DNA from: Candidatus Margulisiibacteriota bacterium
Lineage (GTDB): Bacteria > Margulisbacteria > Termititenacia > Termititenacales > Termititenacaceae
DNA: 37,434 bases
Reading direction: 5' to 3'
NCBI GenBank assembly: GCA_031267055.1
Contig: JAIRZV010000016.1
Location: 1-37,434, forward strand
The notes under the pieces are model-generated. The model did no database searches, had not been told where the DNA came from, and saw nothing but the letters and a program-made list of their open reading frames with translations. This document shows positions 1,546 to 26,636 of the stretch, in pieces (positions within the stretch are counted from its first letter, which is position 1; every line of letters starts with the position of its first letter). Made by a program: the position numbers and the translations under genes.

Positions 1546-1565
1546 GTTTGCAAAGGGGTTTTGGT

Positions 1566-1979
1566 ATGGCTAGAAGATTATATAACGGCAATTTAACAGT
1601 AGAGGATAGGATTTTGGCGCGAATTAACCGCTCCAGAGCAGCCGTTTTTGTACCCAAAGATTTTCAGGACATTTCTTCCTATCCGCAGGTTTTGCGTGCC
1701 TTGAAACAGCTTGTGAAAGACAGGAAAATCGTCAGATTTGGCTATGGCTCTTATGCTAAAGCAAAAATAAATCCCTTTGACAACCGCTGCTATCCCGCGC
1801 AGGATATGGTCTCCGTAGTGAGGGAGCTTTTTGACAAACTGGGCATTGACTGGGATTACTCGCAAGCGGTCAAGGATTACAATTTAGGATTGTCGATGCA
1901 GATGCCAATGAAAAATTTTTTTGTGTTAAACACCCGTTTTAACCGTAACTTGAAAGGAGCGGAGGAGCTTTATGCCTGA
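1566..1979 (+). CDS. Type IV TA antitoxin / wHTH regulator (DUF6088, AbiEi-like)
   Basis: VFVPKDF.D..SY.QV.RAL..LV....IVR.GYG.YAK pattern typical of DUF6088 antitoxins. ATG 1566 preceded by AAGGGG is preferred to the track's TTG at 1548. Overlaps the toxin start by 8 bp. Confidence 0.8.
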   Translation: MARRLYNGNLTVEDRILARINRSRAAVFVPKDFQDISSYPQVLRALKQLVKDRKIVRFGYGSYAKAKINPFDNRCYPAQDMVSVVRELFDKLGIDWDYSQAVKDYNLGLSMQMPMKNFFVLNTRFNRNLKGAEELYA

Positions 1980-3085: not shown

Positions 3086-6000
3086 ATGTATCAGTATTTG
3101 CTTAAAGTGATCTCCGATAGAGTAGGTCCGCCGGACAGAAGGGAGATTGCTAACTCAAATGTTCCAAATGCTAATAATGCCGAGACTGGATTAGTAGATG
3201 CATATGGGAGAGAACTGGATGCTCGTTCTCCGGCCACTGTGCGCTTGCGTTTGGCAGACGGGACTATTGTTGACGCTGCGGTTTTAGATTATGTGTATGC
3301 CGGACAACAAGTAAAACTTCTTACCGATGGAGCAGGTCGGCCTTTGTTTATTGCCAAGCCTACCGGTTATGACGTGCACGGAAATATTGAATACGAATTT
3401 ATGGAAGTTGTGCGTGATGCCGCCGGAGCTATTCACGGACAACGTATAAAAAGAATACTACTCTTAAATGCCGACGGATCTATTTATCGAACCATAAAAG
3501 AAGAAAAAATAATCCTTAACGACTCTGATTTATCAAGAGTGGTTGTAATTGGCACAAATACTGCGGCGCGGCAAGCTTCGGAAAATGAGCGAAACGGGTT
3601 TGCCGAGGATGGTACCGAGTTTAATGTTAGCGAGCTAAGTAAAGAAATCGGCACCACTTTTAATCTGCGAGTGTACAAAGATGGAGCCGCCGGGGAAGCT
3701 CCTAGTGTTTACACGCGGATAATAAAATTTGGAAACAGTTCGGTGGAAAATCTGGCTGTTTTTGATAAAAATGGGCTTCTTTACGTGGTTATGCCGGGTA
3801 AGGCCGCGGAAACATGGGAACTTCATAGTGCTAGATTTAAGGATGAAGTTCAGAACATGGTAATTATCGGGGCAGAAGTAACCGGCAGCTCACAGGTGAG
3901 TTTTGCCGGGGCGGTTGTGGGGGCTGAAGCGGCACAGATTATGCCGAAAAATAATGCTGCGGCTGCTACTATTAGCGACAATCATATTGAGCCTTCGGGT
4001 TTGACAACAACTCTCACGCAGGCCGGAGAATATTTTCGAGATAATTATAAAGGTCATTTGGCGATAACCCAAAGTCGTAACCCGGCTCATGCTTTTAGAA
4101 AAGAAATAGGCAAAGAAGGCGGCGATTATGATATTGATATATATCCTATTGTTGAAAGGTTATACGAAAAATCGGCTACAAACAAAGAGCTATTGACAGT
4201 AATAGAGGCGATGAACAAGAGCGAAAAGAAGAAGCTGTTGCACTGGCTAGAAAAGAGAGCCAAGGAACTGGAAAAGAAGGTCGAAGAGACTGAACTGTTG
4301 GGTGGTATTAAAAGATATCCGCTGCGCGCTACAGCAGATATTTTAATGCAGCTATTCTTGCGTACGCTGGCGCCGGAGGCTGGCGTTGGTTCGGAGGCTT
4401 TACTGGGCGCGATTAATCAGATGGTTTACAGTTATTTCGGCGGTTCGATGAATTACTTTTTCAAAAGCATGATGGACTACAGCAAAGAAACTCATTATGC
4501 AGATAAGAGCGGCGGCAGTTCATTTGTGCTTGCTATGCATGGTAATCCAGAATTGGGCAGGTTTTTAGGGACAATACCTAAAGAATACACTAGAGAATAT
4601 GTGAACACGGAAGATGCAGCTGGCCGGTATGGCGATACCGGTATTGTCTTGAAAAAACAAGGAGATGGGAGTATTGATTTCCGTTTTAGTTACGCGACAT
4701 CTTTGCAGGACGCCAGAGAGTTTGGGGTTTACATTAACGGCTTGATTGCCCGCGCCGAGCGTGAGCTGGCTGATCTCAAGACCCGAAATTCTGAATATTC
4801 GGCCAAAGAGCAAGAAATCTTTGCGCGCCGCGAGGCTGAGCTGGAAAAATTGAAAGAGTCTTACGGCAAAGATGCTCATGGCCGAGATATAGGTTATTTG
4901 GCACGGGCCGAGAAACTGCTGGATAATTTTGATAAAGAGCTGGAGGCTTTAACGGCCGAATACAAAGACATAGTTGCAGCGCAGGAGCTGCTTGGCAGTT
5001 TGTATTCTATTCGCTATGCCGCGGACAGGCGTTTTTCTTTGTCCGACGCCGGACGCCGTGACCGAGGCTGGGCCGGAATCTGGTATTTTCAACTGGATAA
5101 AAAGAAACCTTTGACTCTGCCAAAGGAAATACAGGATCATAAGGGTGTATATATTCATGAAAAAAATAATATATTACAAGTCAATTATTTTCTGACTAGA
5201 GCTGAGCTGGATGAGTATTTAGTACCGGCTTTGAAAAATGCTGGTTATAGCAATGATTTTATTGAAAAAGTCCGGATTGGTTTCAAAATTGTTGAGTCTG
5301 CCTATTATGCCGAGATTGCCAATAGAGGGCCTTTCACCGAATTGCCGGCGGATCAGCGGCAAAGACAGGTGACGGAAGTCGCCGCTTTCACCAGCGTGAT
5401 CTATGATCTGCCGATCGAGCATCTGTATATCTCATTTATGCAGGAAGAGTATTCACTGCACAAAGTGACGCTTGCTATTCAGGCCAACAGCCCCGAGGAA
5501 ACGCATAGCGCTAACGCTTATGGCAATGCCGCTCATGCCCGCGAGAGAGAGACCAGAGCTAACGCGGTGAACGATACTATAATGACCAGATACAGCAAGG
5601 GACGTTTGGTGCATTTGCTGGAAGAATTGATGTCCGAGATTAGCAAAAAACATATTGAGATCGGCAGCAATCTGGACAATATACTGGAGTCGATCGTCTA
5701 TATGTTTGACGCCAGTAAAACACAATCCCAAGCCGAGCGTCTGCTGGCGGTCAAGGAAATTGTGTTAAATTTTCTGTCCGGCAATTTGGACACCAAAGAA
5801 AAACGCATCGCCACTTTGCAGGCCGCGATCCAGATGGATGATTTTGTTTCTGCCGACGCGCAGAGAAATGAACTGCTCAGTCATAATTACCGTTTATTGG
5901 GGCTTATATTGGCCGATCAGCATGGCCGCCGTATCCCGTGGAATATGATACTTGATGAAGTGCTGCAGGACCCAAGAATTTTTCCGGCGGACGACCGCGA

Positions 6001-9000
6001 GCGCAGCATAATGACAGTTGGTTTTCAGAAGTTAAATATGTTCCAAAACGAAAATGCCGGTAAACGGGGTGCGGTTCCTTACAAGCATCGAGGAATAGTT
6101 ATTAACGATCTTAACGGATACGATCCCGAAACGGAATTTCCTTTAAGGCAGGCCTTGCGCGAGGTCTTGGCGGAAGAACTGAAAAAAGGCCTGATCCTAG
6201 AGGCGCAGATAGACAATACTGTAAATCTCTTGATCACCGCTACGGAGTGGCAGGAAAAATCCGTTCCGCGTATCGCAGAGATCATGAGCGGTTTTTGGAC
6301 GAACGGCCAATTATCCATAGCCGAACAGGACGAATTGCGCGGGCTGTTGCTCCAGTATTTTGCCGTGGATGCCGATGAGATGCAGCGGATCATCAATGAC
6401 TTGATCGCCAATAAAGAAGCGATTAGAAATCGTGAACAACTTTATCTCGATACAGACATCGGCTCAAATCATATCAATCAGATCAATGCTGAAAACTTGG
6501 GACTTAAAGCCTATCTGGGCGTGTACGGTTACGCGCGTGGCTACAATATTTACACCAAGGGTTCCTCTCGTCCCAATATCAGCGAGGCGCTGGCTGCCAA
6601 ACCAAAAGGAGAGAAATTTAGCGAAAAGGAGATTAAAGAATTATTTGGCGCGGCTTTTATGGATTACATGTCCGGCCGTACCGGATCGGACGGCGGCATA
6701 AATGAAGTAACGCGCTGGATCGAGTCAGAACATCTGCTTCTGGGTTTTTCCGACTTGCGCCGCCAGAATGGTATGCAAAAAGCTAGAGAGAGTCGGATAA
6801 TAGATCCGACTTTTGGCAAGCTTAGGCGCAGGCTTGGTTTGAGCGACATAGATAATCAACTCTATTTTCCTGAAAGTCATGGCGAGTTGTATCAGGAATT
6901 AACGCATGTGAAAGAGACGCAAAAAATTCATAACAACGGCACAATGGCCTCCTTGAGCAAAGATAGCCTTGATCATATTGTTAGGAATTATGACACGATA
7001 GGCTATGAGATCATGTCAGCTGTGGCTGAATATGAAGACACAGCTTCGATCGATGCGACTATCGAGAAACTTAAAGCTGCTGGTTTCAATGTTGTTGATT
7101 TAAAGAATATTGAGCCAGAAACTGATAAGGATAAACAGGAATGTATCTATGATCTTGATAAGAGAACAATTACCGTAACGCCAAATGTGGAAGAGCTACG
7201 CAAAACTATAATCAGAGAATTGGACGGGGACAGCCACAAGATCGTGAGTTACAAAAACGGCATGTTTACAATTGAATTTGATGAGGGCACTGAGGGTATG
7301 GCACTATGGTTAGCGGATAGTCTAGAAGCGAAAGGATACACCGCCCGTGCTAACACTAGATGGGTTACAGTCGAGTCCAATATCAATTTGATAACCGACA
7401 TTTTGGGCGCGGAAGGGGAAAAGGTGAAGTACAACAGAGAATTAACTTTTGTCACCAATTCGCGGGATTTTATAAAGTTGATTCTGGATGAAAAACTAAG
7501 TCAGGACGAAGCGAAAGTGCTGGTAACGATTTTTAATAGTCACGCGGAATATGTTTCGGATTTTAAAGGCGAAGAAGAAAGGAAAATGAATTATTTGTCC
7601 GAGGCTTTGAGACGAAAGGTTGTGGAAGTTCTGAAGGACCCGCACGTTGGTCTTTACGCCAGTCTTGATGATATGGAAAAGTGGATCAATGACAAAAGCA
7701 AGGAAAACCTCTGGTTTGCTGGTCAGACGCACCGCGAGCAAGTCAGAGCTTTTTGGCGAGATAGACGCGCCAAACTGAAAATTAAATTGAATGAAGCTAT
7801 CAAAGAATTTGCTGGGGATCATAAGGCGGATATAGAGGGTTTTACAAGTATAAATGCCGATACTTTAACCGACCGCTATATGGAGGTTATCGAGGACGCG
7901 CAAAATCTGCTGCAGGCCACGGCTGACGGCATGCTGCTGGAGATCAACCGCGCGGTCGATAACTACAAAGTGATCGTCGGCCAAAATATACTGGCGCCTG
8001 TATCCGCCGCGGCTGGCCAAAATTTGACTGTCCAGCAAATCCTGCTGAATATGCAGATCGACGGCGCTAACAGCTCGCGGGCTGAATTAGACGCTGTATC
8101 TTCCGGGATAGATTGGATGGGAACCAATGATAAGAAAATCGTGGATGCGCTGAAATTTTTGCTCAGCGTGCCAAAGAATGTAAATAAGCCAAATCAAAGT
8201 GGAGCAGTAGATCCTAAAAACATTCAACTCTCTTTTGCGCAGTTGGCCAACGGCCGCAAGCTGGATAAAGAAAATCCTGTCGGCTATCTGGCCGGAGCTT
8301 TGAAACTGGCCGCGGCGCATCAGCCCGGACAAAAATATGTTCGTTCCAAACACTGGAATATTTTTGTTTCTGACCTATTGAGTTCGATCAGCGTCAACGG
8401 CGGCAGAGAAGCTAAAAATTATACCGGCGCAGAAGCAACGATCAAGACAGTGGCAGAATTGGCCGAACATGACGAAGTTAAAAAGATTTTAGAACTGCTG
8501 AAAGGTCTTTCGGAAAACGAGATACAAAGTTTGATCGATCAAACTGTCGCTTGGCTGGAAGCTGAAGCGCGCTACAAGGCCAGTTTGGAGCCTATTCTGG
8601 AAGGCAAAGGCATGTCCCGTGACACGGCTACAGTGCTGACGGATATGTTGTTTGCGCAGGATACTGAAGATGGTTATCGAGGAGAGCTGTCAGTTAAAGC
8701 CAATGCTATAGAGTTTGTGGACACCTACCATAAGGATAGTTATCCCAAAGGGGCGCATACCACAGGAGAATATGAAATGCCGGACGGCACAAAAGGAAAT
8801 GGGCTCATACTGAACAATGGTATTTTAAGAGATTATATTAAAGCGAGAATTGACGCTCAGTCCGCGCCTAAACGCGCTGAGCTGGATTCTTGGAAGCGCG
8901 AACAGGAATCCATGTTTAACATTATCCGCATTTCGCCCAAATATGACAGCACTTTTAAGCCGGAAACTTTCAACGGGTCTTACATTGGCCTGACGCCGTT

Positions 9001-11635
9001 CGAGACTATGCAAAAAATTATCAAAGGTATGTTCTTGCATTACTATCAATGGAACGGACAGTACACCATTCAGCAAGTCTGGGCAAATTTCAAAGACGAA
9101 ATGCAGCGTGACACTATCTCCAACGCTATGCCGACTATTCTTTACCGCGGTGTTGAATATCCTTTCTGGGATTTGCTGGATAAAGTTTTTGCGGAAATCG
9201 ATAAGAAAAAACTGCTGTCGCTGCATAGCTTTAAAGCGAACGGAAAAGAAAACTATGACTATGCTTTGGACGCTATGCGCCAGCGTTATAAAAAAGTCGA
9301 TGAAATTTTTGATGATGTTATGTTGAAAGTCATTTCGAATTTTAAAAGTTATGTTGAGGTTACTCAGCCTTATCTGGATGAACTAGCTATTGATCCTGAG
9401 ATGCAGGCGCTAAATAGAGAAAATCAGAAAGAGCTGGATATGCTTTCCACTTTACTGCCTACTTTACTGTTCGTGGCAAATGCCGGCCTGACTATGGACG
9501 AGATCGAGGACGCGCTGGTTTCAGAAAATGCGGATAAAGATAATTTGTTCAATAAATATAATTCTCTTCCGGTATTGTCCGCGTACCGGCCGGATGAGCA
9601 AGGCAATATCGTCAACTGGACGACAGTTTTATTACAGGCGCAGCAGGCTATGTATTATTCAATGTGGAATAAAAATCAGCGCGGCGGCTGGTATGATATG
9701 CTCGATTTCAATAGAACCAAATCTTATGTTGATGAAATGATGGGCTTTTTGCAAAATCAAGGCTGTTTCAATAAAAACCTACGTGTTCACGCGACTTATC
9801 TGCATTTGCTGCGTGGCGTGATCAATGTCGCCGTGCCGGTAGATAATTCTATTATGGACAACGGTCTGCCGAACACTGTTGGCAATAATCCCAATCCGCC
9901 GAGCTATGTACCAAGGATGTCCACAGAGCTGGGCGTTCCGGCCGCTGCCGCTGCCCTGTCCTCGGTGGTTATGCCGCTATTGGGGCCTGTTCTGTCGCCG
10001 CTGCTGCTCAATATTTTGACTTCAGTGTTGTATCTGAATGTTGTGCCCGGGGTACAGAGAAAAATGCAGGAAACTTACCGGCGTGTGTCTGTTTTGAAAG
10101 AGGAGAAAGAGGATGATAACTTTCTGCTTCGGCTGGAAAAATTGCATCAAGTTTTGGACTTGAGTAAGACCTACAGCGCGGTGGAGGATTACCGGATCAC
10201 GCTGGAGATGATGAAGTCTTTTTTGTGGGGACGGCAGATCAGGAGTTTTATCGGCTCGGCCAAAGCGGAAAGCGATCATGACGTCACCGCTCTGGTGCAA
10301 TTCCCACGCTGGTTTGGCGCGATCTTGGAACTGTCGCCAGCGGAGCTGATGGACGCCAAGTTTATGGAGAGATTTGCCAAAGAGCATCATATGCCGAAAT
10401 GGATTATGCGAGAAATAGTTAAATTCCGCGAGGAAGCGAGCTTCCATGACCTGCACCCGATGTCTATGTATTACAATCTGCGTTTTAGCATGGTGATGTC
10501 CATGTACGCGCTGTTCGGTTTTTCGCCGTTCTCTTTTGCCGGGCCGTTGAGCGCTGTGGCTGGCTCCGCGCTGCTGATCGGAGCGGTGGGTATATTTGCC
10601 TTGTTTGATTATATGTTTATTAAAAACCAAATCGCGGCGCATCACTGGACAGCCGCTGGCATCAATAGAGCCAATGAGAGGGTGGCGGAAGACCGGTCCA
10701 ATACGATCAACGGTATTTTAATACCCAAGATCGAGAGCACGCTGGTCAGCGTATATAAAATGAAGTTCATTTCTTCCCAGCCGGTGTATATACCTGAGAA
10801 ACGTTATGCGGATGGTCTGTATTTTGGCAAGGCGGATGCGCTCAAAATGCAAATAGCGGCTAAACTGCAATACCGCCAGAAATTAGCAGATTTGGCAACA
10901 ATGAAAGAACAGGCCGAAAAAAATATAACGGCGCTGGTCAACCAAATCGCCGGGCCTGAGCTGGCTAGATATGAAAAGGAGCTGCGTCAAGATAAACACT
11001 GGCAGAATAAGAGCGAAGCGGAAATAACACAAGAAGCCAAGCAGCGCGCTTATAAAGATATTCTGAATCTGGCACGCGGAGATGCCGGAATTCAAATATC
11101 TCTTAGATCTGGTCTTGAGTTAAACAAAAAACAAAAAGAAGGAATGTTAAGAAAAATAAACACCTTGTCGCAAGCCGCTGACTCGACTGAGGAGCAAAAA
11201 ATGGCTCTGCTGGATAATTTGATCGATATAGCTAAGCTAGATGATGTGATTGTGCGGACAGAAGCCACTATCGCCAGCAGCCGTGGTGGTATTGGTAACC
11301 CGCTGGGAGCATTAAGAGCCAGACGCCCCGGCGTAAGACTTAACAACTGGCACAATATGGTCCGCAAATATATGCCGGCGGTTTCTATGAGCGCTCTCAG
11401 CGCTTCCGCTTTGCTAACAATTGCCAGCAATCCTATGTCTGCGATTCTCTTAGTGCCTGTGCTGGTGTTTGGCTGGTTTAGCACGAGGAATCTTTTTCTC
11501 CGTCCGAAAAATTATGTGGAAAGAGGCATCGGTGGAGCAGTGCCCAGCCTGCGCGAAGCTCAATTATACGCGGAAAGATATTTTGATGGGCAAGGAACGC
11601 ATAATACAGCAAATGGAGGTGGCGATCATGAATAA
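3086..11635 (+). CDS. Giant (2849 aa) processive GT2 glycosyltransferase, cellulose-synthase (BcsA/CesA)-like, with large insertions
   Basis: Ordered motifs: DKD (aa 2150-2152), VLLQAQQAMYY (~VQTPQ.FY, Q2184), TVGNN (~FCGS), SAVEDY (~TED, 2366-2368), QFPRW (2405-2409, 37 aa after the Asp). These are followed by hydrophobic helices (SMYALFGFSPF, ALLIGAVGIFALFDYMFI), KFISSQP (~FxVTxK position) and terminal TMs ending GWFSTRNL. GGGAG RBS. Confidence 0.72.
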   Translation: MYQYLLKVISDRVGPPDRREIANSNVPNANNAETGLVDAYGRELDARSPATVRLRLADGTIVDAAVLDYVYAGQQVKLLTDGAGRPLFIAKPTGYDVHGNIEYEFMEVVRDAAGAIHGQRIKRILLLNADGSIYRTIKEEKIILNDSDLSRVVVIGTNTAARQASENERNGFAEDGTEFNVSELSKEIGTTFNLRVYKDGAAGEAPSVYTRIIKFGNSSVENLAVFDKNGLLYVVMPGKAAETWELHSARFKDEVQNMVIIGAEVTGSSQVSFAGAVVGAEAAQIMPKNNAAAATISDNHIEPSGLTTTLTQAGEYFRDNYKGHLAITQSRNPAHAFRKEIGKEGGDYDIDIYPIVERLYEKSATNKELLTVIEAMNKSEKKKLLHWLEKRAKELEKKVEETELLGGIKRYPLRATADILMQLFLRTLAPEAGVGSEALLGAINQMVYSYFGGSMNYFFKSMMDYSKETHYADKSGGSSFVLAMHGNPELGRFLGTIPKEYTREYVNTEDAAGRYGDTGIVLKKQGDGSIDFRFSYATSLQDAREFGVYINGLIARAERELADLKTRNSEYSAKEQEIFARREAELEKLKESYGKDAHGRDIGYLARAEKLLDNFDKELEALTAEYKDIVAAQELLGSLYSIRYAADRRFSLSDAGRRDRGWAGIWYFQLDKKKPLTLPKEIQDHKGVYIHEKNNILQVNYFLTRAELDEYLVPALKNAGYSNDFIEKVRIGFKIVESAYYAEIANRGPFTELPADQRQRQVTEVAAFTSVIYDLPIEHLYISFMQEEYSLHKVTLAIQANSPEETHSANAYGNAAHARERETRANAVNDTIMTRYSKGRLVHLLEELMSEISKKHIEIGSNLDNILESIVYMFDASKTQSQAERLLAVKEIVLNFLSGNLDTKEKRIATLQAAIQMDDFVSADAQRNELLSHNYRLLGLILADQHGRRIPWNMILDEVLQDPRIFPADDRERSIMTVGFQKLNMFQNENAGKRGAVPYKHRGIVINDLNGYDPETEFPLRQALREVLAEELKKGLILEAQIDNTVNLLITATEWQEKSVPRIAEIMSGFWTNGQLSIAEQDELRGLLLQYFAVDADEMQRIINDLIANKEAIRNREQLYLDTDIGSNHINQINAENLGLKAYLGVYGYARGYNIYTKGSSRPNISEALAAKPKGEKFSEKEIKELFGAAFMDYMSGRTGSDGGINEVTRWIESEHLLLGFSDLRRQNGMQKARESRIIDPTFGKLRRRLGLSDIDNQLYFPESHGELYQELTHVKETQKIHNNGTMASLSKDSLDHIVRNYDTIGYEIMSAVAEYEDTASIDATIEKLKAAGFNVVDLKNIEPETDKDKQECIYDLDKRTITVTPNVEELRKTIIRELDGDSHKIVSYKNGMFTIEFDEGTEGMALWLADSLEAKGYTARANTRWVTVESNINLITDILGAEGEKVKYNRELTFVTNSRDFIKLILDEKLSQDEAKVLVTIFNSHAEYVSDFKGEEERKMNYLSEALRRKVVEVLKDPHVGLYASLDDMEKWINDKSKENLWFAGQTHREQVRAFWRDRRAKLKIKLNEAIKEFAGDHKADIEGFTSINADTLTDRYMEVIEDAQNLLQATADGMLLEINRAVDNYKVIVGQNILAPVSAAAGQNLTVQQILLNMQIDGANSSRAELDAVSSGIDWMGTNDKKIVDALKFLLSVPKNVNKPNQSGAVDPKNIQLSFAQLANGRKLDKENPVGYLAGALKLAAAHQPGQKYVRSKHWNIFVSDLLSSISVNGGREAKNYTGAEATIKTVAELAEHDEVKKILELLKGLSENEIQSLIDQTVAWLEAEARYKASLEPILEGKGMSRDTATVLTDMLFAQDTEDGYRGELSVKANAIEFVDTYHKDSYPKGAHTTGEYEMPDGTKGNGLILNNGILRDYIKARIDAQSAPKRAELDSWKREQESMFNIIRISPKYDSTFKPETFNGSYIGLTPFETMQKIIKGMFLHYYQWNGQYTIQQVWANFKDEMQRDTISNAMPTILYRGVEYPFWDLLDKVFAEIDKKKLLSLHSFKANGKENYDYALDAMRQRYKKVDEIFDDVMLKVISNFKSYVEVTQPYLDELAIDPEMQALNRENQKELDMLSTLLPTLLFVANAGLTMDEIEDALVSENADKDNLFNKYNSLPVLSAYRPDEQGNIVNWTTVLLQAQQAMYYSMWNKNQRGGWYDMLDFNRTKSYVDEMMGFLQNQGCFNKNLRVHATYLHLLRGVINVAVPVDNSIMDNGLPNTVGNNPNPPSYVPRMSTELGVPAAAAALSSVVMPLLGPVLSPLLLNILTSVLYLNVVPGVQRKMQETYRRVSVLKEEKEDDNFLLRLEKLHQVLDLSKTYSAVEDYRITLEMMKSFLWGRQIRSFIGSAKAESDHDVTALVQFPRWFGAILELSPAELMDAKFMERFAKEHHMPKWIMREIVKFREEASFHDLHPMSMYYNLRFSMVMSMYALFGFSPFSFAGPLSAVAGSALLIGAVGIFALFDYMFIKNQIAAHHWTAAGINRANERVAEDRSNTINGILIPKIESTLVSVYKMKFISSQPVYIPEKRYADGLYFGKADALKMQIAAKLQYRQKLADLATMKEQAEKNITALVNQIAGPELARYEKELRQDKHWQNKSEAEITQEAKQRAYKDILNLARGDAGIQISLRSGLELNKKQKEGMLRKINTLSQAADSTEEQKMALLDNLIDIAKLDDVIVRTEATIASSRGGIGNPLGALRARRPGVRLNNWHNMVRKYMPAVSMSALSASALLTIASNPMSAILLVPVLVFGWFSTRNLFLRPKNYVERGIGGAVPSLREAQLYAERYFDGQGTHNTANGGGDHE

Positions 11636-14600
11636 ATGGCTGACTAAAATACTTTCGGATGAAGAGTTATTAAGAAGAGTCAGAATGGGCGGCGGATCGA
11701 AACCGCCGAGAAAACCCTGGCCGCCTCTGGCTAAAGCAGGGATTGCCGTTGCTGGACTTGGCGCAGTTGGTGTTGCTGGCTATCAATGCGAAGCAGCCAA
11801 AGAATCCAGAAGAAGCGAAGTAGAGCCTGCTGAGGCAACGGAAGCCTTAGAACAGGAAACGGCCGAAAGCGAAACGACATCTATCCATGACGAAGGAATG
11901 AAAATTTTAAACGAGGCTTTGGAAAAAACTGACTTGAAAAACGAGGAAAATCTGAACATCAAAATTCAGACCACGCTTGATAATGTTATGCGGGGTGATA
12001 ACGGCAACAAATTAAAAGTGACGCTTGGCGACGCGATATTTATTCAAGATCCCAGCCAGCCACAAAATGGCATTGTTTCGGAAAGTGTTTATTTCCTGCG
12101 CATCGCCGCGGCTAAGCCTAGCGAGGAAACCCAGAAGTTTTTTGACGGGCTGCTGCGTGGCTTTGATCAAATGACTGCGCTGGGTGGCGGCCACGGCGTG
12201 TTCCCGGCTTGGACGGTAAAGATCGAGAACGACCGTTTGGTTTTGAATACAGACAAAGACGCTGGCGCGCATAATTCTGCCGCTGACTCCGATCATGATC
12301 TGATCATGGCTTTGCTGGTAGCCGTGCAAAATGTAAAAAACAATGATTGGGAGGATAGTGATTACGCCGAGCGGCTGGAAAAACTGATCGATGGTCTGGC
12401 TAAAGAATATATTGAGGTGGCTGGCCGCTGGGCGCTGAAGCCTTCAGAAGATTGGTACGGCGATGAGCAGGGCGAATGGTTTTATCTGGACTACTTTTCC
12501 CCAGAAACCTGTTTTGCGCTGGCGCAATATTTAGCTGCCAAAAATGATCCGCGCGCGGCGTTTTGGCAAAAGTGCGGAGAGGACAGTCTGGAAATATATG
12601 CCGCTTGTCTGGAGCAGATCGGCTGGGTGCCTGAGCAGGTTTCCCTTGGCATTGATGAGGATGGCAATCTGCTGGTCGAAGCGCGGCAAGGCCATGGTTT
12701 GCAGGGTTGGGACGGCATTCGCGCGCCAAGCCGTATTGCTGCCGGTCTGCCTTATTATATTAAGGCCAATAAATTGACCGAAGAACAAAAAGCGATTTTT
12801 ACAGAATATCTAAATAAATGGAATGATCCTGCCGGCAAAGCTTCCGGCATGGCTCCGGCTTTGACTGCGGCGGCTTATCTGCCTCTGGCTGTGCAGCTGG
12901 GCGCTGTTGATTTGGCCGCCGAGATGCTGTCCGTGCTGGCCAAAGAAAATACCGCCGCGGTTTATGCCAGTCAAGATCAGTATTACGAAACCTCGTTGAT
13001 TTTAAAAGCGTTGGTTGATGTCAGCGCGCCTTATGATCTAGACAAGTATTCTCGGATGGGCGACTATACTCCGGCTTGGCGGTTAGAAGACATTTGCGAT
13101 CCACAGGCTGGTTATTATGGCCAAGTTGGTGTTTTGAGCGCTTTTGGCGCGCTGGGTTTTGTGATCAACCCCGATCCGCCCAGCCAGTTTAAGATTTATA
13201 AAGGCATTAACACCCATATTATTACCGCCGAGAGTATGCTTTCTGGTTTGGCTGACGCAATGGCCGCGGGTGATATGGCTAAATTTCAGGCCATCTTTAA
13301 TATGATCGATGCGCTGTGCGTAGAAAATTATAACAAGGGCAAAGCCAAAAGATTATTTTTGCCGAGAGTGGTGACCTTGAAGCCGCAGGATAGCGCGCGT
13401 AAATTGTCTTTAGACAATTTTACTATACCCGGAGGCAATGACGGCAAAGCTTCCAGCAGCGGCGCGGATTTAATGCTGCTGGCTTTATTGATCAAGGCTC
13501 TGGACATGGATTTTAATACAGGATTGATGAACGCTCCAAAGTTTTTGTACGATGCTCAGAACCGGATCAGGAATTTTATCGCCAGATACGCCAGCGAGAT
13601 GGTCAAGAGCAGTGGCGATGTTTATCCTTATACGGATGAGACTGGCGCAACGCGGCTGCTATTGACACCAGGTGGTTTGATTGGCAGTAATGAGTCACCA
13701 AGAGATCAGAGCATTATATACGAGTATCATACTGATTATGTACAAAATCTGGATATTTTGCGCTGCATCGTTCAATATTTTAGGCCGGGATTTGGCATTG
13801 GTAATAGTAAAGGTTCCTCAGAGTTGTATACAATTTTTACCGCACTGTTGTCCGATACGGAAGAATTGAAAAAAAGGATTGACGCGAAATTTTCTGACGC
13901 CGTTAAATATCCGCAAGGGATGCCGCAAACGGTGTACATCTACCTGCCCCACGCGTCTGGGCAGCCGGTGCGAGTGCTGGATGCCAATGAATTTAGCGCG
14001 GAGATGAATCCAAATAAGAAAGAGGAATATATTTCATTGAATTACCCGGGCTCCAATGGCTATGATTACGGTTACTATTATACGCAAATCATGCAAGCCG
14101 CCAGCTCCGGCAAACAACCAGCGATAGATTTTAAGCAAACGAAAGCGCAGGTCAATGTGAATGAGGACTATATCTATGGCAAGACCGGCATCGGCGTGGT
14201 GGCCAATCATGTTGCACGTCATCATGGCGTGGCCGGTATATCTCCGTTGCATGATCGGAGATTGCAAAATGATTCGGAAATCGGCCGCGGCCGCCTGCAG
14301 ACAGCGGATTCTAAAGCATATGATAGGACGCCTTACCCGTTTGCTGTGTCAATTCCTATACTTTTTTTCAATATTGATATTATTGGCGACTGGGAAAAAG
14401 TTTTCAGCGACCGGCTGCGCGCGGCGCTCAGGAGAATGAGCGAAGCGGATTATGCGGCGCAGGGCGAACAAATGTACACCAATACTTTGCTGGCTTATGC
14501 CGGATTGCCCACTGCGAAAATGGTCAAAAAGGGCATGACTACCGAGCGCGTTGCCATTACCGCTATACGGGTAGATGACTTTCTGGAATCAGTTCTGGGT

Positions 14601-16295
14601 TTTTCCGAAGAATTTGTCCGTAAAGGTCTTTATATTGAAATTTCTGCCGTTGATGTGGTTTCTTATTACTTGCTGCAGATTAGCGCGATGTTCGGTTATG
14701 ACAAGCCGGAATTGCTGCATCGTATCAATATGCTGCTGGCGGAGATCGAGAGACAGGCGCAGACTAAAGGAAAAGAAGTGGATTTAGACAATCCTATTGT
14801 CAAGGCGCTGAAGCTCCAGCAGCTTTTGCTGTGGAACAATATGTCGCCGCTGCAAAGAGACCGGCTTGATCTTGCCGATCTGGAGCATTACGGGTTAAGG
14901 CCTCTCTATAATTATTTTAAAGACCAACCCGCAACGCAAAACGATATCATTAAGCTGACAGAATTTTCTTGGGATGGCATTGAACTGGATGTGTCCGATG
15001 CAATAGTAGACCCTGTTACAGGAGAAAAAGAGTATACGTTGACGCCGGATAAACTCAAAAAGATGCGCATACCGCAGCAGTTGAAAGATGTGGTGTTTAG
15101 TGAAATAGCGCGGAGAGATATTTTAGAAAAGATTAAAAAGTATCCATTGCCTGTTCCGCTGGAAAGAGAGAAAGAGCGTGAAGAAAACCTTAGAGAAGAG
15201 CTTTTTGATTATATAGATAATTTGCCGAAAGAGTATAAGGTGCCCGGTTTGATCCCGATCCTTTTCTCGGAAGGCGAGCTTGATGAAAATGACGAACGCA
15301 AACCTGACCCGATCCCGCGCGCCATCAAGGAAGAATTTATCCGTACATATCTGGATGAAATCGACTACACTAAAGCCGGCGCTTCTGGAAAGTACAACAC
15401 TTTGTGGCAGGCGTATACTTTGCTTCTTTATAAAGAAGTCAGCAAGGAGATCAGCGATTGGGTAAAGAAAGTAAAAGCCGACGAGAGTGATCAGCCGAAT
15501 GCAAAGACGCTGCTGTTGATAAAACAAAAATTAGCAAATCTGACCGCTATGCTGAATATTATGCATCTGACCGGCCTGCCACTGGAGCAGCAGAGCACTG
15601 ACCCGCTGATCGAACAATTCGCTAAGGCCAGGGAAATTAATGATAAAGCGTTCGACGATTTTGTGGGCACATATGAGGAACAAGGAATCTTGGCGGATAT
15701 ATTCAACAATATCTACTGGCTAGGCAACGATCTAGAACAGCTCAAAGATGCTAAAGAAGACGGAAGCTTGTACAGACAGAGAGGGTTTGATTTATTGAAT
15801 GTCTATACAACAAATAATGCGGATTGGGAAAATAGTGATAAATTGAACGGCGTGTATATGCGTTTGCATCTGCAGGAAAGTGCTAGAAACAAGGAGCTTA
15901 CTCCAGAGCAAATTACAGAAAATTTAAATAAACTGCGGCAGCGGCAAAGAGCAGCCAATGCCTATGGCAATAAACGGGAATATGCTTACTTTTTGCAGAC
16001 GGAAGCGTTTGTATATTCACAAGTGGGTTATAACCCGCAGCCGGATGAAAGGAATGAAAATCCAGAAAACGGGTATAGTAGATATAGGGATATAGTAACT
16101 GACGAAATTCTTAAACAGTTCGATTATATATTGGCTGAGGTGAAAAATATGCAAATGGATGTAGAGTCTATAAATCCGCCACCGCTTTCTCCGGTTTCGG
16201 CAGATGATTCACAGGAAAATAACCCGACGGATACCCATGAAGATCGTACGGAAGAGACTAATATTGACGATGCAAGGAATATATTTGGTTTTTAA
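11628..16295 (+). CDS. Membrane-anchored/lipoprotein-like protein (~1555 aa) with two tandem GH8-like (BcsZ-like) domains and a helical C-terminal region
   Basis: Start revised to ATG 11628 (GGAGGT at 11615-11620; overlaps the upstream stop). Domain 1: VSESVYF (E152), NSAADSDHDLIMALLVA (D220), LDYFSP, GWVPE, GWDGIRAPSRIA (D362), YYETSL. Domain 2: TAESM...GDMAKFQAIF, SSSGADLMLLALLIKA, LLTPG, GYDY, YTNTL. Confidence 0.8.
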   Translation: MNKWLTKILSDEELLRRVRMGGGSKPPRKPWPPLAKAGIAVAGLGAVGVAGYQCEAAKESRRSEVEPAEATEALEQETAESETTSIHDEGMKILNEALEKTDLKNEENLNIKIQTTLDNVMRGDNGNKLKVTLGDAIFIQDPSQPQNGIVSESVYFLRIAAAKPSEETQKFFDGLLRGFDQMTALGGGHGVFPAWTVKIENDRLVLNTDKDAGAHNSAADSDHDLIMALLVAVQNVKNNDWEDSDYAERLEKLIDGLAKEYIEVAGRWALKPSEDWYGDEQGEWFYLDYFSPETCFALAQYLAAKNDPRAAFWQKCGEDSLEIYAACLEQIGWVPEQVSLGIDEDGNLLVEARQGHGLQGWDGIRAPSRIAAGLPYYIKANKLTEEQKAIFTEYLNKWNDPAGKASGMAPALTAAAYLPLAVQLGAVDLAAEMLSVLAKENTAAVYASQDQYYETSLILKALVDVSAPYDLDKYSRMGDYTPAWRLEDICDPQAGYYGQVGVLSAFGALGFVINPDPPSQFKIYKGINTHIITAESMLSGLADAMAAGDMAKFQAIFNMIDALCVENYNKGKAKRLFLPRVVTLKPQDSARKLSLDNFTIPGGNDGKASSSGADLMLLALLIKALDMDFNTGLMNAPKFLYDAQNRIRNFIARYASEMVKSSGDVYPYTDETGATRLLLTPGGLIGSNESPRDQSIIYEYHTDYVQNLDILRCIVQYFRPGFGIGNSKGSSELYTIFTALLSDTEELKKRIDAKFSDAVKYPQGMPQTVYIYLPHASGQPVRVLDANEFSAEMNPNKKEEYISLNYPGSNGYDYGYYYTQIMQAASSGKQPAIDFKQTKAQVNVNEDYIYGKTGIGVVANHVARHHGVAGISPLHDRRLQNDSEIGRGRLQTADSKAYDRTPYPFAVSIPILFFNIDIIGDWEKVFSDRLRAALRRMSEADYAAQGEQMYTNTLLAYAGLPTAKMVKKGMTTERVAITAIRVDDFLESVLGFSEEFVRKGLYIEISAVDVVSYYLLQISAMFGYDKPELLHRINMLLAEIERQAQTKGKEVDLDNPIVKALKLQQLLLWNNMSPLQRDRLDLADLEHYGLRPLYNYFKDQPATQNDIIKLTEFSWDGIELDVSDAIVDPVTGEKEYTLTPDKLKKMRIPQQLKDVVFSEIARRDILEKIKKYPLPVPLEREKEREENLREELFDYIDNLPKEYKVPGLIPILFSEGELDENDERKPDPIPRAIKEEFIRTYLDEIDYTKAGASGKYNTLWQAYTLLLYKEVSKEISDWVKKVKADESDQPNAKTLLLIKQKLANLTAMLNIMHLTGLPLEQQSTDPLIEQFAKAREINDKAFDDFVGTYEEQGILADIFNNIYWLGNDLEQLKDAKEDGSLYRQRGFDLLNVYTTNNADWENSDKLNGVYMRLHLQESARNKELTPEQITENLNKLRQRQRAANAYGNKREYAYFLQTEAFVYSQVGYNPQPDERNENPENGYSRYRDIVTDEILKQFDYILAEVKNMQMDVESINPPPLSPVSADDSQENNPTDTHEDRTEETNIDDARNIFGF

Positions 16296-16320: not shown

Positions 16321-19300
16321 ATGACAGATGTAGTGACCGGCGTTAATAACAATTTAAACTGGCCGGAAATAATAACCAATCGGCAAACTCCTCATATAGG
16401 TGGTTTAAATGAGGATGAGTGGAAAAATTTGTTGGGGTTTACTACTTATGTGCAAGAAGATCACTATGATCCTTATATTCAAAATATTTATGATGAAATA
16501 ACTTTTCTAGAGCAAAATTATTGGCAAGATGAAAAGTATCGCAGTAGATTAACCCAAGATTTGGCAGAAATAAATCAAATTATCTCTGAGGCTACTAAAC
16601 CAAAAACGTTTAATTATAGTCCCAGACAATGCCTGTCGTTTTGTTATGCGGCGATCAGTTTGAATATTGTTCTTGGTGACAAGACTGGCAATACGACTTA
16701 TTACAATAATGCGCGCGAATTACTGGCGCGTTTTGATGTAAGACATGGAAATTATGTATTTCGCGCTCGGAATGAGGAGGTAACGCTTGCTTCCCATACT
16801 TTTGATCAAAGTTTATGGTTTGTGTCGCTGGTCGGCCAGTTGATCGAGCGTGGTGTCATTACGCCAGATACAGAAAAGACAAATAATATAGTTGGTCTTC
16901 TTGGTAATACAATAAAAACTATCGGGAATAATTATATTAATGAAAAAAATGAAGAAAAGAAAGCCGAATTATATATAAGAGGAAGATATTTTACTGCGGC
17001 TAGCCTTTATTTAGATGCCAAGCTGGAAAGAACAGAAGCGACCAGAGCCGCAAAGTATAAGGAAATATATGACAATTTGAAGAAGGATGGTACTTCCTCT
17101 CCTTTGTTACTTGTTTTGAGATTAACTGTATTAAATAGTTTGCTTTCCACTTCTCTCGATGCTGATGTTGTGAGGGATTATGGTGTAGATATGGCAGAAC
17201 TGGAACGATTTTTTAATTGGACTTTACTGCCTTCCGCAAATGCTATTAAACAAGCCCCAAATACTCCACGTGAGCGTGCCATAAAAGAAACAGACAAATC
17301 GTATTTGCAGGCTAAATATAATAGTTATGTGCAATACTATATGTCCCGCGCCAATTACTTGCGCACCGCAGCGCAGCAAGCTATAAAACAAATTAAATCT
17401 GCTGCGAATATCAATACAGCTATCAATAACGCCGCCACCGCTGTAAAGAATTTCAATGATTTTCTCTATGTCAGGGTTACTAATGATTTAGCGGACAGAG
17501 AAAATTCTTATTTTAAGGATTTTCTGACCTCAGCCAAACAAGAAGTGGAATTTCTCGAGTTAGATATTGTTTTGACCAGAGCGGAGCGCGGCGATACCAG
17601 TGTTAATTTAAATAGCTTAATGGGTCGTATTAACAGCCTAACGGCCAGCACTCCTGGAAACAACGCCCGCCGTTATTATTTCCGGTCGCGTTTGTTCAGT
17701 TTGCAGATCAAGCGCGAACCGAATCCAGAAAGAAAAAATATAATTCGCCGCAACGCTCTTGCTTTTATTATCGGTGGCCAAACCAGCGATGGAAAACCTA
17801 TTGCAGATAATGTGCTGACGGCTGATTATAATTTGAATAATATTTATAGAACTAACAATGCCGCTGACAATAAAAACTTGCAGCTCAACGCCCTCTGCGA
17901 AGCGGCGGAATTGCTTATGGATTTAGATAGAAAGAGTGAAGCCAAAGACTACTATGCGATTTTGGAAAGGCCTGCGGTATCCAATTTGACAGCTTTATTG
18001 AGTGTTGACCCGAGAACTAATCGATATGCTTTTCAAAGCGCGGATTTGAATGCGACATCCGCCCGAGTGCTGTTTTTGGCTGCCAGCTTAAAAGACAACA
18101 AAACTCTGTCAGAGGCCATTGCTAACCGGTTGATAGATGTGTTTGGTCCGGCGGGAAGTCCTAAAGACGAAACTATATTCAATGGCGCGCTGGCTCTTAG
18201 GGAAGGCTTCCGTTTTGACTATGTTTTAGATAATTTGAAAGCGCTGAAAAAAGCAGGCCAATGGGCGGAAGGTTTGGCTAAGATAGATGAAGAAGCGGCT
18301 TTGTTTGCACAGAACGCGGATAACCAGCGCGAGCGCGCTTTCCAATTAGCGGAGTGTAATAATCTGGCTTACCTTTACGACAATGGCAGCAAGCCGGATT
18401 TGAGCAATTTGGCGCAATACACTAATCCGGCCAGCCGGCAGAGACTGCATTATTTAAGAATGGCACAGTTGGCCAGCGACAAGGCTACACCCAGTGGTAA
18501 AGACCTGTCCGGTATTTTGCGAGAGATTGGCGATTTGGTGCGCTGGGATAAAAACTCCCAGAAACTGACTTTCACTTTGTCGAGCGAGTATGATGTTAGA
18601 CTAGATACTGTAAATAAGGATACACAAAAATCGCCGAAAGAATATAACGACGAGTTTGAGTTTGCGGTAATCGCTGAATATTTTGAGACGCTGAATAGTA
18701 TTTTGAATAGTGAAGAAAAAACCGGCCTGCGTCCAGCTGATCCACAATCCGCCGCAGAATTAACCGCCGCGTTTAGAGATTATTTTGATAGGCAGAAAGC
18801 GCGGAATGTCAACAGTCCTTCAGAACAAGATTTGCGCTTTTTGTTCTTCGCCGCGTTGCTCCTTGACGGCGATCAGTCAAAACCGAAAGACATTTACGAG
18901 AAAATTATCCACTGTTATCCCTTGCCAGTGCCGCGGGGCTATGCAGTGTCTGTCAATGGAGTGTCGCAAACTTATTATTACAATTCCGACGCCAAGCGTG
19001 CTTACTGGGAAGCGCAGGCCGGTCTGGTTAATTATTATGCTAAACAAAAGAATTTTGCCGCGCAGAAAACGGCATTTGATAGGATCGAAACCGAATACAA
19101 AAACCGCATTAATCCGCAAAACGTTGCTGGTTATGCCGCCGATGCCGCCTATATCAAAAATCTTTATTTCAACGCGCTGTTGATGCAGTGCCTGTCCGAT
19201 CTGGAGCAAGAAAACCGGAATACAGCCGTTGAACATTTGGGAGCATGGAAAACCCTGCTGGCAGACCCCGGCATTGCCGGACAATTAACTCCGGCGAAAC

Positions 19301-22300
19301 GTGAGCAGCATAAATATACTTTGATCGAAATGTGGACCCGCGCGGCCATGCTGCTGGACACACAGGAAGATCAGCCGCAGGACGCGCTCGACGAACTGCG
19401 CAAAATTTACAACGACAAAGAGTACAATTTATCCAGCGCGCAAAACGCCGCCGCCCGGCTCTGCGCCGACATTATTCGCGGCAATATTGAGGGACTGATT
19501 GCCGCAGACAGGCAGAGAACTACCGGTCCGCGCCTGACCTTTACTCCTGACGATACTTTTAACCCTGACAATATTTCTAAAAATTATTTTACAAAGAACT
19601 TAACGGTTGGCGCTTATACAGACCTGCCGCTTCGTTACGAAAAACAGTTGTTTATTTCTTCACTGCTCAATCGAGCCAAGCTTGGCGATCAACAGGCGGT
19701 TGAGACTTTGCAGGCCTTGCTTGCGCCGGCGCGCGCCGAGCAGACAACTGCTGAAGTTGACAAGGATTTCTTCTCGCAGATCGAGCCGCGCCTGGAGCTG
19801 GATCAAGCCTGGAATTCTCTGAATGATAAATATCAGGGTTATCGGCCTGCGGGTATCAATGCCGAAAATATTGCCAAAAAATATCTTGCTTCTCCATATT
19901 CTGCTGGCACACACGATGAGGCGAAAGACCTGCTCCGTCTGGCCTGGTCGAAAGGCGCTAATCCACAATGGGCTGTCAACGGGACGACTATTACGATCGA
20001 CAATAGGCCAGTACCGATAAAAGGCTATGCAGACCTGGCCGGATTTACCAATAAGCAGGCTCGCTCTGCCGCGGAAAATCTCCTGACGCTTTACGGTTAT
20101 ACTACGGCGACACGCGATGAGAACAAACTGGCCGGATTGATTAAGAATATTCTAACCCCGGGGGTGGCCGACGAAGAATTGTGCTGCAAGGCCCAGTTGG
20201 CCGAAGCCGAACAATACCTGCGGCTCAGCGGCGATCCGGACGCTGTAAAAAATTTACCGGCAGTCCTGTCAGCCTTGGGCTTTCTGTCCGGCGCCAGGAC
20301 CGACCGATACATTCGTCCGGCTATCGAGAAAGCTTTGGAAACCACTTTGGATGTTCTGGGTGATATTTTTACTGAAAATGCCGAAAGCCGTACTTCGGAC
20401 GATTATTATACTTATTGCAATCAGCGTATCCGCTATGTGCTTTTGCAATATGAAAATGCCCCGCAAAACGCTTATGACGCGCTGGAAAAACTGAGCAAGC
20501 CGCTGAATGAAGGTGGGCTGGGCTTGTCCGGCGACAGCCTTACCGGAAAACTCCTGCTGGATACAATTACTGCCAATAGGAATACGTTGCTTCTAGAAAA
20601 CGCGGATAAAATAAATGGCGCCGCAGAAAAGCTGAATTTTGTGCCACAGCCACAGTCGGATCAGGATCAGAAAAAAATTCTTGATGAGTACCTGCATATT
20701 TATGACGAAGATTGCGCCACAAAATTCCAAAAACAATTGCTGATCGGTATCTTGCTGCTTTTGGCCGCTCAGACCCGGATAAGCGGGGCGGAGCCTGCGG
20801 AGTCCGGCGATGATGACGCGGCGGAGATGGCTGTGGAAATACTCCTGGGTCTGCGTCCGAATGATGATCCGCGTAAATTGACTTCCGCAGAACGCTTGGC
20901 GGAAACCGTAGAGTTTATGGGGCAGGAATATTTTGACCTGCTTGAACCGCGCCTGCGTCTGGATTATGCCTGGGCTTTGCTGAAGCCGAATAACCCATCA
21001 GCGGCGGCTTTGAATATTACGGAGCGGATCGCCAGAACAATTATTGAACAGGGTGAGAAAGTCACGGCCAAGATAATTTCTGAAGCGGAAGACCTGCTCC
21101 GTCTGGCCTGGGCTAAGTCTAAAGATAGTGCAGATGGCAAGCCTAAGCCGCAATGGGCTGTCGACGGCAAGAATATTGGCACGGATGACCAGCCGGTGTT
21201 CATAAAAGGTTATGCCGCACTGATCGCTGAACCAACGGATTTTACCGACAAACGAGTGAACGGCGCGTTTGAAAATCTGATCTCACTGTACGGCTACAAT
21301 CCTCTGACGCGCGATGCTGAATCAAATAAAGGCAAATTGGCCGAACTGGTTAAACAATTACAAGAAACTTATGATAGCGCCACGTTCTCTCCACAGCTCA
21401 AACCGGCCGTCAAAAAACTGTACATCAAAGCTCTGCTGGCGCAGGCGGAGACTTATTACCGAGATAAAAATATGATCGACATGGCTAGGGCGCTGGATCT
21501 TTTGTTAGCGAAACCGACTGAGTCTACCGGTGATTACAGCGGCCTGTTATCTGGAGAAATCGGTATTCCAGAAAAAACCGAGGAGTATTATGCCTACTGC
21601 GAGCAGCGCGTCCGTCTGGTTTTGCAACAAGCGCAAGACAACAATAAATCCAAATCGGCGGTGGAGACCGGCAATGATCTGGAAATTTTGCGCGGAGAAT
21701 TAAATCTGATCAGTCCGGAATGGCTCCCGACCAACTTGACCGAAAAATTATTGAATTCTTTTATTACGGTCAACAAGCCGAACATCACACCTCAAGAGAC
21801 CAAGGATGTTATGGCTAATCTGGGTTTTGACATCACAGCAAGCCGCGAGTATTTCGAGAAAACCTGCCGGACCGATTATCAACGCCGCTTATTCATCGGT
21901 ATCTTGTGCAAGCTGGCTGATTCGACCTCAGACGCGCCGAACACCCTTACCCCTGATCAACGCGCGAAGCTTCTTTCGGACGGCGATAACGACATTTATG
22001 AACAGATCGTGGAAGATTTGTTGCTGGACAGCCAAAACCAATACAGGCCCACGACTTTTGCGCAGGATCTTCTGAGTCCGGAATACGCGGCGACGATCCT
22101 GCCGCGTCTGCGTCTGGGCATGGCTTGGCGCGGACTGACCGGTAATGATAATGAATCAGCCGACCAAGTAATTTCCAAAGACTGGTTGGCTGTGGCTGAT
22201 GGAGTGGTCAGTGTTGTTGATGCTTTGTGCGCTGTAAATTTGACGCTGAGAAAAGAACTGCAGAACGAAGTCGATTCTTTGCGTTATTTCGTAATGATCA

Positions 22301-26622: not shown

Positions 26623-26636
26623 AAGAGGTGAGGACA

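Follow-up and report, generated by a model that had tools for sequence, protein, structure and literature searches.

Cellulose, chitin, hyaluronan and numerous glycans of biofilms are products of membrane-embedded synthases of glycosyltransferase family 2 (GT2), and, to our knowledge, all known members share one compact design. In the cellulose synthase BcsA, the channel is built by transmembrane (TM) helices 3-8. Here, we analyze g1, a giant gene in a stretch of 37,434 nucleotides of DNA from a Candidatus Margulisiibacteriota bacterium (GenBank assembly GCA_031267055.1, contig JAIRZV010000016.1, positions 1 to 37,434); this whole stretch is called the window below. The C-terminal tail of the g1 protein is probably a remote and re-engineered synthase-like module with putative catalytic activity.

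The window is the whole of one contig (C165) in an assembly of 1.54 Mb that consists of 174 contigs and is 74% complete. The only sequencing run listed with the window stretch is a termite gut metagenome DNA run, which may be the source, and no RNA run is listed. The gene is located as follows (positions are those of the window, residue numbers are amino acids (aa) of g1):

3086..11635, + strand: g1, open reading frame (ORF) of 2849 aa without a signal peptide, with a predicted cytoplasmic N-terminal region of about 2280 aa and a C-terminal synthase-like membrane module

The tail of g1 resembles BcsA (Protein Data Bank (PDB) entry 4p00) in several respects. In the same order as BcsA and at similar spacing, g1 has a candidate DxD motif, a glycine, a (T)ED motif, a QxxRW motif and a small residue three positions after the tryptophan (W+3). 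TM helices follow QxxRW in both, six TM helices are predicted for g1, and its catalytic face is predicted to lie in the cytoplasm. BcsA was the top structural match for both models of g1, and a gene with a domain of glycoside hydrolase family 8 (GH8) adjoins, as bcsZ does in the bcs operon of E. coli. In contrast to BcsA, g1 lacks a detectable nucleotide-binding half, N-terminal TM helices and a PilZ domain, its G and ED motifs are separated by an inserted TM hairpin, and the sequence before the DxD is polar. Furthermore, the module is the end of a 2849-aa protein and stays below every family threshold. Chitin synthases, class I hyaluronan synthases and plant CesA/CslF6 share ED and QxxRW with g1 and gave the only long alignments besides BcsA in the search with the second model; they differ from g1 in the same points as BcsA does. 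The chitin synthases have EDR, of which the g1 family motif S-x-V-E-D-x-R is reminiscent. The insertions of plant CesA, P-CR and CSR, are soluble, whereas the insertion of g1 is predicted to be a TM hairpin.

Motifs and topology of the C-terminal module

An exhaustive phmmer search with aa 2050-2849 among 1,835,955,588 representatives yielded, together with g1 itself, 17 proteins at E <= 0.001. Most of these proteins have 2000-3200 aa, and the four named members all belong to Margulisbacteria or 'Candidatus Termititenax'. The family members are 21-40% identical to g1, and the homology with the 16 relatives is collinear from about aa 400 to about aa 2600. Searches with word-indexed tools yielded a single relative when the whole of g1 was used and three already-known members when the core alignment was compared with longer proteins. 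A member of the family was found in seven of the 146 genomes of the phylum, the window's own genome included. One related genome (G077) harbors two members, whose open frames comprise 1103 aa and 3198 aa (contigs C71 and C11, loci L009 and L015/L022), so that the family can occur in more than one copy.

The following features were annotated in the C-terminal part of g1, the counts referring to the family sequences:

8903..9505, + strand: aa 1940-2140, the most conserved pre-domain of the family, at the place where a nucleotide-binding half would sit; no GT2 likeness
9533..9544, + strand: D2150-K-D2152-N, candidate DxD motif (D2150 in 13 of 13, K2151 in 12 of 13, D2152 in 13 of 13)
9761..9766, + strand: G2226-C2227, candidate equivalent of the G that is invariant in FFCGS (15 of 15)
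9926..10057, + strand: predicted TM hairpin 1, aa 2281-2324, between the GC and ED motifs; present in 15 of the 15 homologues that cover the region
10175..10189, + strand: S-A-V-E2367-D2368, candidate (T)ED catalytic-base motif (E and D in 17 of 17); start of a helix in both models
10268..10270, + strand: E2395 (17 of 17), 10 residues before Q2405
10298..10312, + strand: Q2405-F-P-R2408-W2409, QxxRW motif (Q, R and W in 17 of 17); within a long helix in both models
10454..10627, + strand: predicted TM hairpin 2, aa 2457-2514, placed by hhalign on the TM region of BcsA that follows QRIRW
10757..10783, + strand: K-M-K-F2561-I-S-S-Q-P, which may correspond to the FxVTxK gating loop (F in 17 of 17), 156 residues after the Q compared to 124 in E. 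coli BcsA
10838..11365, + strand: helical linker, aa 2585-2760 (about 176-190 aa), from the model and the family alignment
11381..11503, + strand: predicted TM hairpin 3, aa 2766-2806, from hydropathy and the family alignment

In the family alignment, E2367, D2368, E2395, Q2405, R2408, W2409, G2525 and F2561 were invariant in all 17 proteins. As a reference, an alignment was used that comprised E. coli BcsA and 16 Pfam-positive GT2 proteins of the same phylum, which had been picked for the presence of QxxRW. From the DxD motif on, D360, G433, E456, D457, Q493, R496, W497 and G500 are invariant in this alignment, and D362 is conserved to at least 90%. The collinear counterparts in g1 are, in the same order, D2150, D2152, G2226, E2367, D2368, Q2405, R2408, W2409 and A2412. 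At the last of these positions, W+3, the g1 family has alanine in 11 of 12 sequences and GT2 an invariant glycine, a small residue in either case. The spacings are closely similar as well. The distance from the D of the DxD motif to the G is 76 residues in g1 and 73 in E. coli BcsA, and the distance between the D of the ED motif and the Q, which a first-pass annotation of the window had already given as 37 residues, is indeed 37 in g1 (D2368-Q2405) and 36 in E. coli BcsA (D457-Q493). In the six-frame translation of the genome (3.09 million residues), the pattern ED-x(33-40)-QxxRW occurs only three times, namely in g1 and in two Pfam-positive GT2 genes. By these counts, the C-terminal motifs go beyond a chance occurrence.

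Profile comparisons with hhalign recovered the same registers, albeit weakly. Positions 239-396 of the family profile were aligned with BcsA 452-584 (P 0.011), with ED on TED455-457 and QxxRW on QRIRW493, and positions 25-84 were aligned with BcsA 359-428 (P 0.064), with DKD on DCD360. An in-house hhalign comparison also placed DKDN on DCD (P 0.049), and an earlier comparison without BcsA had given P values of 0.035 and 0.27. The two best local alignments are exactly the motif registers, and they are mutually collinear.

The first-pass annotation had interpreted g1 as a GT2 synthase core that is split by very large insertions, and the motifs that it named are present in the protein (D2150/D2152, TVGNN at 2264, VED at 2366-2368, QFPRW at 2405-2409 and KFISSQP at 2560). 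D2150/D2152, D2368 and R2408/W2409, for which it had proposed a test of conservation among homologues, are all invariant. TVGNN and KFISSQP, by contrast, do not go beyond chance. TVGNN stands opposite gaps in 15 of 16 homologues, is not conserved and was not found by profile comparison either. In KFISSQP, F2561 is found in all 17 proteins and is the sole invariant residue, while the remainder is loosely kept and follows the pattern K..F.[ST][ST][EQ]P. At most, the stretch is a possible counterpart of the gating loop, for which profile comparison gave no support.

Hydropathy analysis revealed only three hydrophobic segments in g1 (aa 2281-2324, 2457-2514 and 2766-2806), all of which lie close to the C terminus and are long enough for a hairpin. 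In agreement with the first-pass annotation, N-terminal TM helices and PilZ are absent, i.e., no hydrophobic segment was found before aa 2119 and no PilZ match in g1. All three hairpins have flanks rich in K and R, as read from the sequence. Because of these flanks and the lack of a signal peptide, the soluble mass of g1, motifs included, is predicted to be cytoplasmic, as it is in the synthases. The predicted arrangement thus has TM helices after QxxRW and a cytoplasmic catalytic side. The partly hydrophobic insertion that had been noted between TVGNN and VED was confirmed at aa 2281-2324. It is not a loose insertion, but is predicted to form a TM hairpin in every member that covers it. A helical insertion of about 190 aa after KFISSQP, which had also been noted, was confirmed (aa 2585-2760, helical in the model) and turned out to be specific to the lineage. 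It is long only in g1 and partly long in the family proteins P0008, P0012 and P0015.

Structural models and the possible origin of the module

The best explanation for these observations, which we rate as equally liable to prove right or wrong, is that the C-terminal part of g1, approximately 700 residues in length (aa ~2140-2810), is a very remote and rebuilt relative of the processive GT2 synthases that works together with the GH8 domain encoded by the adjacent gene, g2, in making and exporting a polysaccharide. It is favored by the small size of the family, whose invariant core is formed by the motifs, by the collinear registers, by the GH8 domains encoded next to g1 and to a homologue in a distant lineage, by the conserved gene order, by the predicted topology and by the specificity of the ED-x(33-40)-QxxRW pattern in this genome. 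The analysis shows the invariance and collinearity of the motifs, the topology, the GH8 neighbor and the synteny, while homology, fold, catalysis, product and partners are inferred from these. Fold searches with two low-confidence models point in the same direction. Two AlphaFold2 models were generated, one of aa 1940-2849 from 17 sequences (model 1) and one of aa 2125-2600 from 20 sequences (model 2), and both were compared with 48,161 representative chains using VIA-align. With model 1, BcsA (4p00_A) came first and was the sole chain with Z >= 8 (Z 9.5, root-mean-square deviation 4.2 Å, 297 aligned residues, model 13-888 on chain 220-738); the runners-up were helical hairpins of about 60 residues with Z 7.7. 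With model 2, 4p00_A again came first (Z 7.6, 234 aligned residues, chain 237-510). More than 200 residues were aligned in only seven of the 50 rows, all of which are processive GT2 synthases, and the remaining rows had at most 134 aligned residues. Besides 4p00, the long alignments were obtained with yeast Chs1 (8k3p), barley CslF6 (8dqk), Chlorella-virus CvHAS (8snc), a chitin synthase (8k52), soybean CesA1 (8vhz) and Xenopus XlHAS1 (8smm), and these six comprised 206-246 residues with Z values of 6.3-7.5.

A second explanation, which we consider unlikely, is that the likeness arose by chance or convergence. The C-terminal module would then be unrelated to GT2 in both evolution and mechanism and would merely anchor a giant cytoplasmic scaffold in the membrane by six helices peculiar to the family, and the invariant ED, E and QxxRW would serve another purpose, e.g., the binding of a partner or of a lipid. 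A considerable number of results agree with this explanation and weigh against a relationship with the synthases. To begin with, all sequence searches stayed below significance. The whole of g1, pieces of it and its homologues had no match in Pfam, NCBIfam or the PDB sequences (phmmer/hmmsearch), and ten g1 homologues had no Pfam or NCBIfam family above the curated threshold. PF00535, PF13641 and PF13632 had no match in the window, while the same searches yielded 5-10 GT2 genes elsewhere in the genome. When a GT2 hidden Markov model was compared with the family, the best score was 7.1 bits, 14 of the 17 members scored 0 or less or had no match, and reversed controls reached 0.8. The hhalign probabilities are weak (1-4%), and comparison of the gating-loop and GC regions with GT2 gave no profile support.

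The structural results are subject to similar reservations. The mean predicted local distance difference test score (pLDDT) was 58.0 for model 1 and 50.5 for model 2, so modeling the core alone gave no gain in confidence, and in both models the stretch between DKD and GC and the stretch before ED had a pLDDT below 50. The Z-scores of 7.6 and 9.5 are within the range that the tool describes as common for unmatched models, and therefore we place weight on which chains came up and not on the scores. Foldseek searches of the PDB with both models retrieved no synthase (best E values 0.35 and 0.63), and the ESM Atlas contained no GT2 for g1 (best scores 0.82 and 0.75). In addition, AlphaFold may have followed the same motifs, so that the evidence from the folds and that from the sequence are not entirely separate. 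Lastly, g1 had been selected by motif, and hence a motif match in this single sequence is not independent evidence.

Nevertheless, it is unlikely that each GT2 invariant after the DxD would gain by chance a counterpart that is invariant, collinear and nearly equally spaced. It also speaks against chance or convergence that BcsA came first in both searches of 48,161 chains, that the only long alignments in the second search were those with seven synthases, and that a GH8 domain neighbors the g1 family in two separate lineages. Should the likeness be only convergent after all, it would be a useful warning about calls that are based on motifs and low-confidence models.

The region before the DxD also weighs against the proposed relationship with processive GT2 synthases and favors chance or convergence. 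The nucleotide-binding half of the GT-A fold, with its motifs PxYNE, DDG and KAGN, was sought with hhalign in six consecutive parts of g1 and was found in none (P 0.17-0.53). The first-pass annotation had tentatively located this half about 900 aa upstream. Its candidates are indeed present (LLITATEWQE at aa 1048, NIYTKGSSRP at aa 1154 and KANGKENYDYAL at aa 2050), but they did not hold up. In a scan for columns with at least 90% conservation among 12 family sequences, no such column was found between L1024 and G1203 (aa 1025-1202), and none between D2039 and F2075 (aa 2040-2074), the surroundings of the supposed KAGN-like motif KANGKENYDYAL. Profile comparison did not find these candidates either (P > 0.17). 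The place where the half would be expected, aa 1940-2140, is the best-modeled part of the protein (pLDDT 68-93) and consists of helices and one beta hairpin; R1948, K1958, P1959, G1968, E1973, D2009 and D2039 are conserved in it. Furthermore, the six residues before DKD are polar, with a mean hydropathy of -0.27 compared to +1.72 for the hydrophobic strand of GT2. As the searches for the nucleotide-binding half came up empty, g1 is not classified as a GT2 member but only as synthase-like. The synthase core of the first-pass annotation is supported in part; the C-terminal motifs are invariant and collinear with GT2, while the nucleotide-binding half and a GT2 Pfam match are missing. A truncated GT2 ORF on another contig (C137) was considered as the partner of a split GT2 protein and was rejected, since it belongs to a GT2 gene of the usual type that is interrupted by in-frame stops or a frameshift. 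This gene (G000:C137:14373-14840, L005) contains one TAG and one TAA in frame and leads, after a change of frame, into an ORF of 489 aa; it may represent a frameshift or a pseudogene.

The failure to find the nucleotide-binding half also leads to a third explanation, i.e., that the module is derived from GT2 and has been decayed or repurposed. The channel and the acceptor site (ED, QxxRW) would have been kept and the polymerization of nucleotide sugars lost together with the nucleotide-binding half, so that g1 would be a polysaccharide translocase or receptor, or would use another donor, held either by the helical aa 1940-2140 or by some partner protein, e.g., g3. All of the homology evidence fits this equally well, as do the failure to find the N-terminal half in g1 or in the whole window, the polar context before DKD and the confident helical prediction for the region that lies in its place and is the most conserved of the family; yet we regard it as the least probable of the three, because D-x-D, ED and QxxRW remain invariant at 21-40% identity, which argues that glycosyl-transfer chemistry is still under selection, and because no alternative donor-binding domain was recognizable in the searches.

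If the module is a rebuilt synthase, it could be envisaged to act in the following way. Of the catalytic domain, it would retain everything that follows from the DxD on, with D2150-x-D2152, G2226, E2367-D2368 and Q2405xxR2408W2409. The six predicted TM helices, arranged in three hairpins, would form the channel, and all soluble parts would be cytoplasmic; one of the hairpins would be inserted within the catalytic domain and would replace the N-terminal TM helices of BcsA. Sugars would be added to the growing chain at the membrane face, with D2368 as the base and W2409 holding the acceptor, and the chain would be pushed via the six-helix channel into the periplasm, where it may be trimmed or released by the GH8 domain of g2, which is anchored in the membrane, in the manner of BcsZ. 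The cytoplasmic 2100-aa region of g1 and the 3433-aa protein g3 might serve as a scaffold or regulator in place of PilZ, and the predicted lipoprotein g4, g5 and the secreted g6 with its Ig-like repeats might be the outer parts of the system.

A bolder version, which we put forward as a doubtful but not far-fetched proposal, is that g1 represents a new class of processive polysaccharide synthases. In this class, the Rossmann-like half would have been swapped for a conserved helical domain, two of the six channel helices would lie inside the catalytic domain, and a scaffold of about 2100 residues would be fused to it. The matrix that attaches the termite-gut Margulisbacteria to host cells would be made and exported by this synthase in cooperation with a giant, anchored GH8 protein and three more proteins that are giant or belong to the envelope. 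If g1 is functional, it would show how far the compact design of GT2 synthases can be rebuilt, and a functional relative would point to a new way of donor binding. It would also open a first route to the function of a conserved operon, the five genes of which are giant or unannotated and which spans about 34 kb or about 2% of the assembly, and would hint at how an uncultured lineage of ectosymbionts builds its attachment surface. A literature search found no paper that pairs 'Margulisbacteria' with 'cellulose synthase'; the paper that describes the genomes of these bacteria (Utami et al. 2019, ISME J, as cited in PMC7608387) was outside this search.

The GH8 protein and the neighboring genes

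Downstream of g1, the window contains five genes on the same strand:

11628..16295, + strand: g2, 1555 aa, with an N-terminal TM anchor; syntenic in G076, G077 and G060
12048..13001, + strand: GH8 (BcsZ-type) domain of g2 (Pfam PF01270, 27 bits, cut-off 24)
16321..26622, + strand: g3, 3433 aa, without signal peptide, TM segment or family; syntenic
26628..28517, + strand: g4, 629 aa, with a lipoprotein-like signal and a lipobox-like LFGC
28520..30388, + strand: g5, about 622 aa, paralogue of g4
30449..37333, + strand: g6, 2294 aa, with a signal peptide and CarboxypepD_reg (Ig-like) repeats; predicted secreted or surface protein

The start codon of g2 overlaps the stop codon of g1. The assignment of g2 to GH8 is supported by the match to PF01270 above the cut-off and by the motifs of the catalytic region of BcsZ. 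In an hhalign comparison, the domain was aligned with E. coli BcsZ 44-337 (P 0.0072, 277 columns), and SE and NSAxDxD are retained. Given its N-terminal TM anchor, the bulk of g2 is predicted to be periplasmic. The order aminotransferase-g1-g2-g3-g4-g5-g6 is conserved in two congeneric genomes (G076 and G077). In a genome of a different family-level lineage (G060), g2-like genes with GH8 matches of 43.8 and 30.1 bits lie beside the g1 homologue. In this genome, an open frame of 5577 aa is located downstream of the g1 homologue (L020 1851-18581 and L021 1-2376, both on the - strand) and contains two g2-like repeats (residues 58-387 and 1442-1771) as well as GH8 matches, which suggests that the GH8 partner can be duplicated and enlarged. 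Another g2 homologue (L022 14000-19318, + strand) has a match to Phage_sheath_1C below the cut-off (E 7e-4, 20 bits), which g2 of the window lacks.

The arrangement is similar to that of the bcs operon (bcsA-bcsB-bcsZ-bcsC) in that a synthase-like inner-membrane protein is followed by a predicted periplasmic GH8 domain, with a predicted lipoprotein and a predicted secreted protein encoded further downstream. It differs in that the GH8 domain forms part of a larger, anchored protein of 1555 aa and in that the genes for proteins of 3433 aa and 2294 aa have no bcs counterpart. A further difference, and one more point against the proposed synthase, is that hhalign found no likeness to E. coli BcsB or BcsC in the C-terminal part of g2, in g4 or in g5.

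Two homologues of g3 (L018 489-9521 and L023 3-8492, both on the + strand) have TPR matches below the cut-offs (E 3.5e-4 to 6.3e-4), which g3 of the window does not have. The paralogy of g4 and g5 was noticed because each of them matches the counterpart of the other in the relatives at 22-23% identity, and neither matches a known family. The N terminus of g5 was read as a membrane anchor, but it failed the hydropathy scan.

Between the aminotransferase gene and g1 (window 1548-2886, + strand), a DUF6088 ORF (143 aa, 30.7 bits) and a gene for an AbiEii nucleotidyltransferase toxin (304 aa, E 1.3e-25) are located. BLAST gave no match for the AbiEii gene at the syntenic G076 and G077 loci, in which the aminotransferase gene likewise lies upstream of g1. 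The two genes look like a type IV toxin-antitoxin pair. At the other end of the operon, g6 is 64% identical to its counterpart in G076 over 2095 residues, compared to only 32% for g1, and it contains an internal repeat, in that residues 1-1264 match again at 35%.

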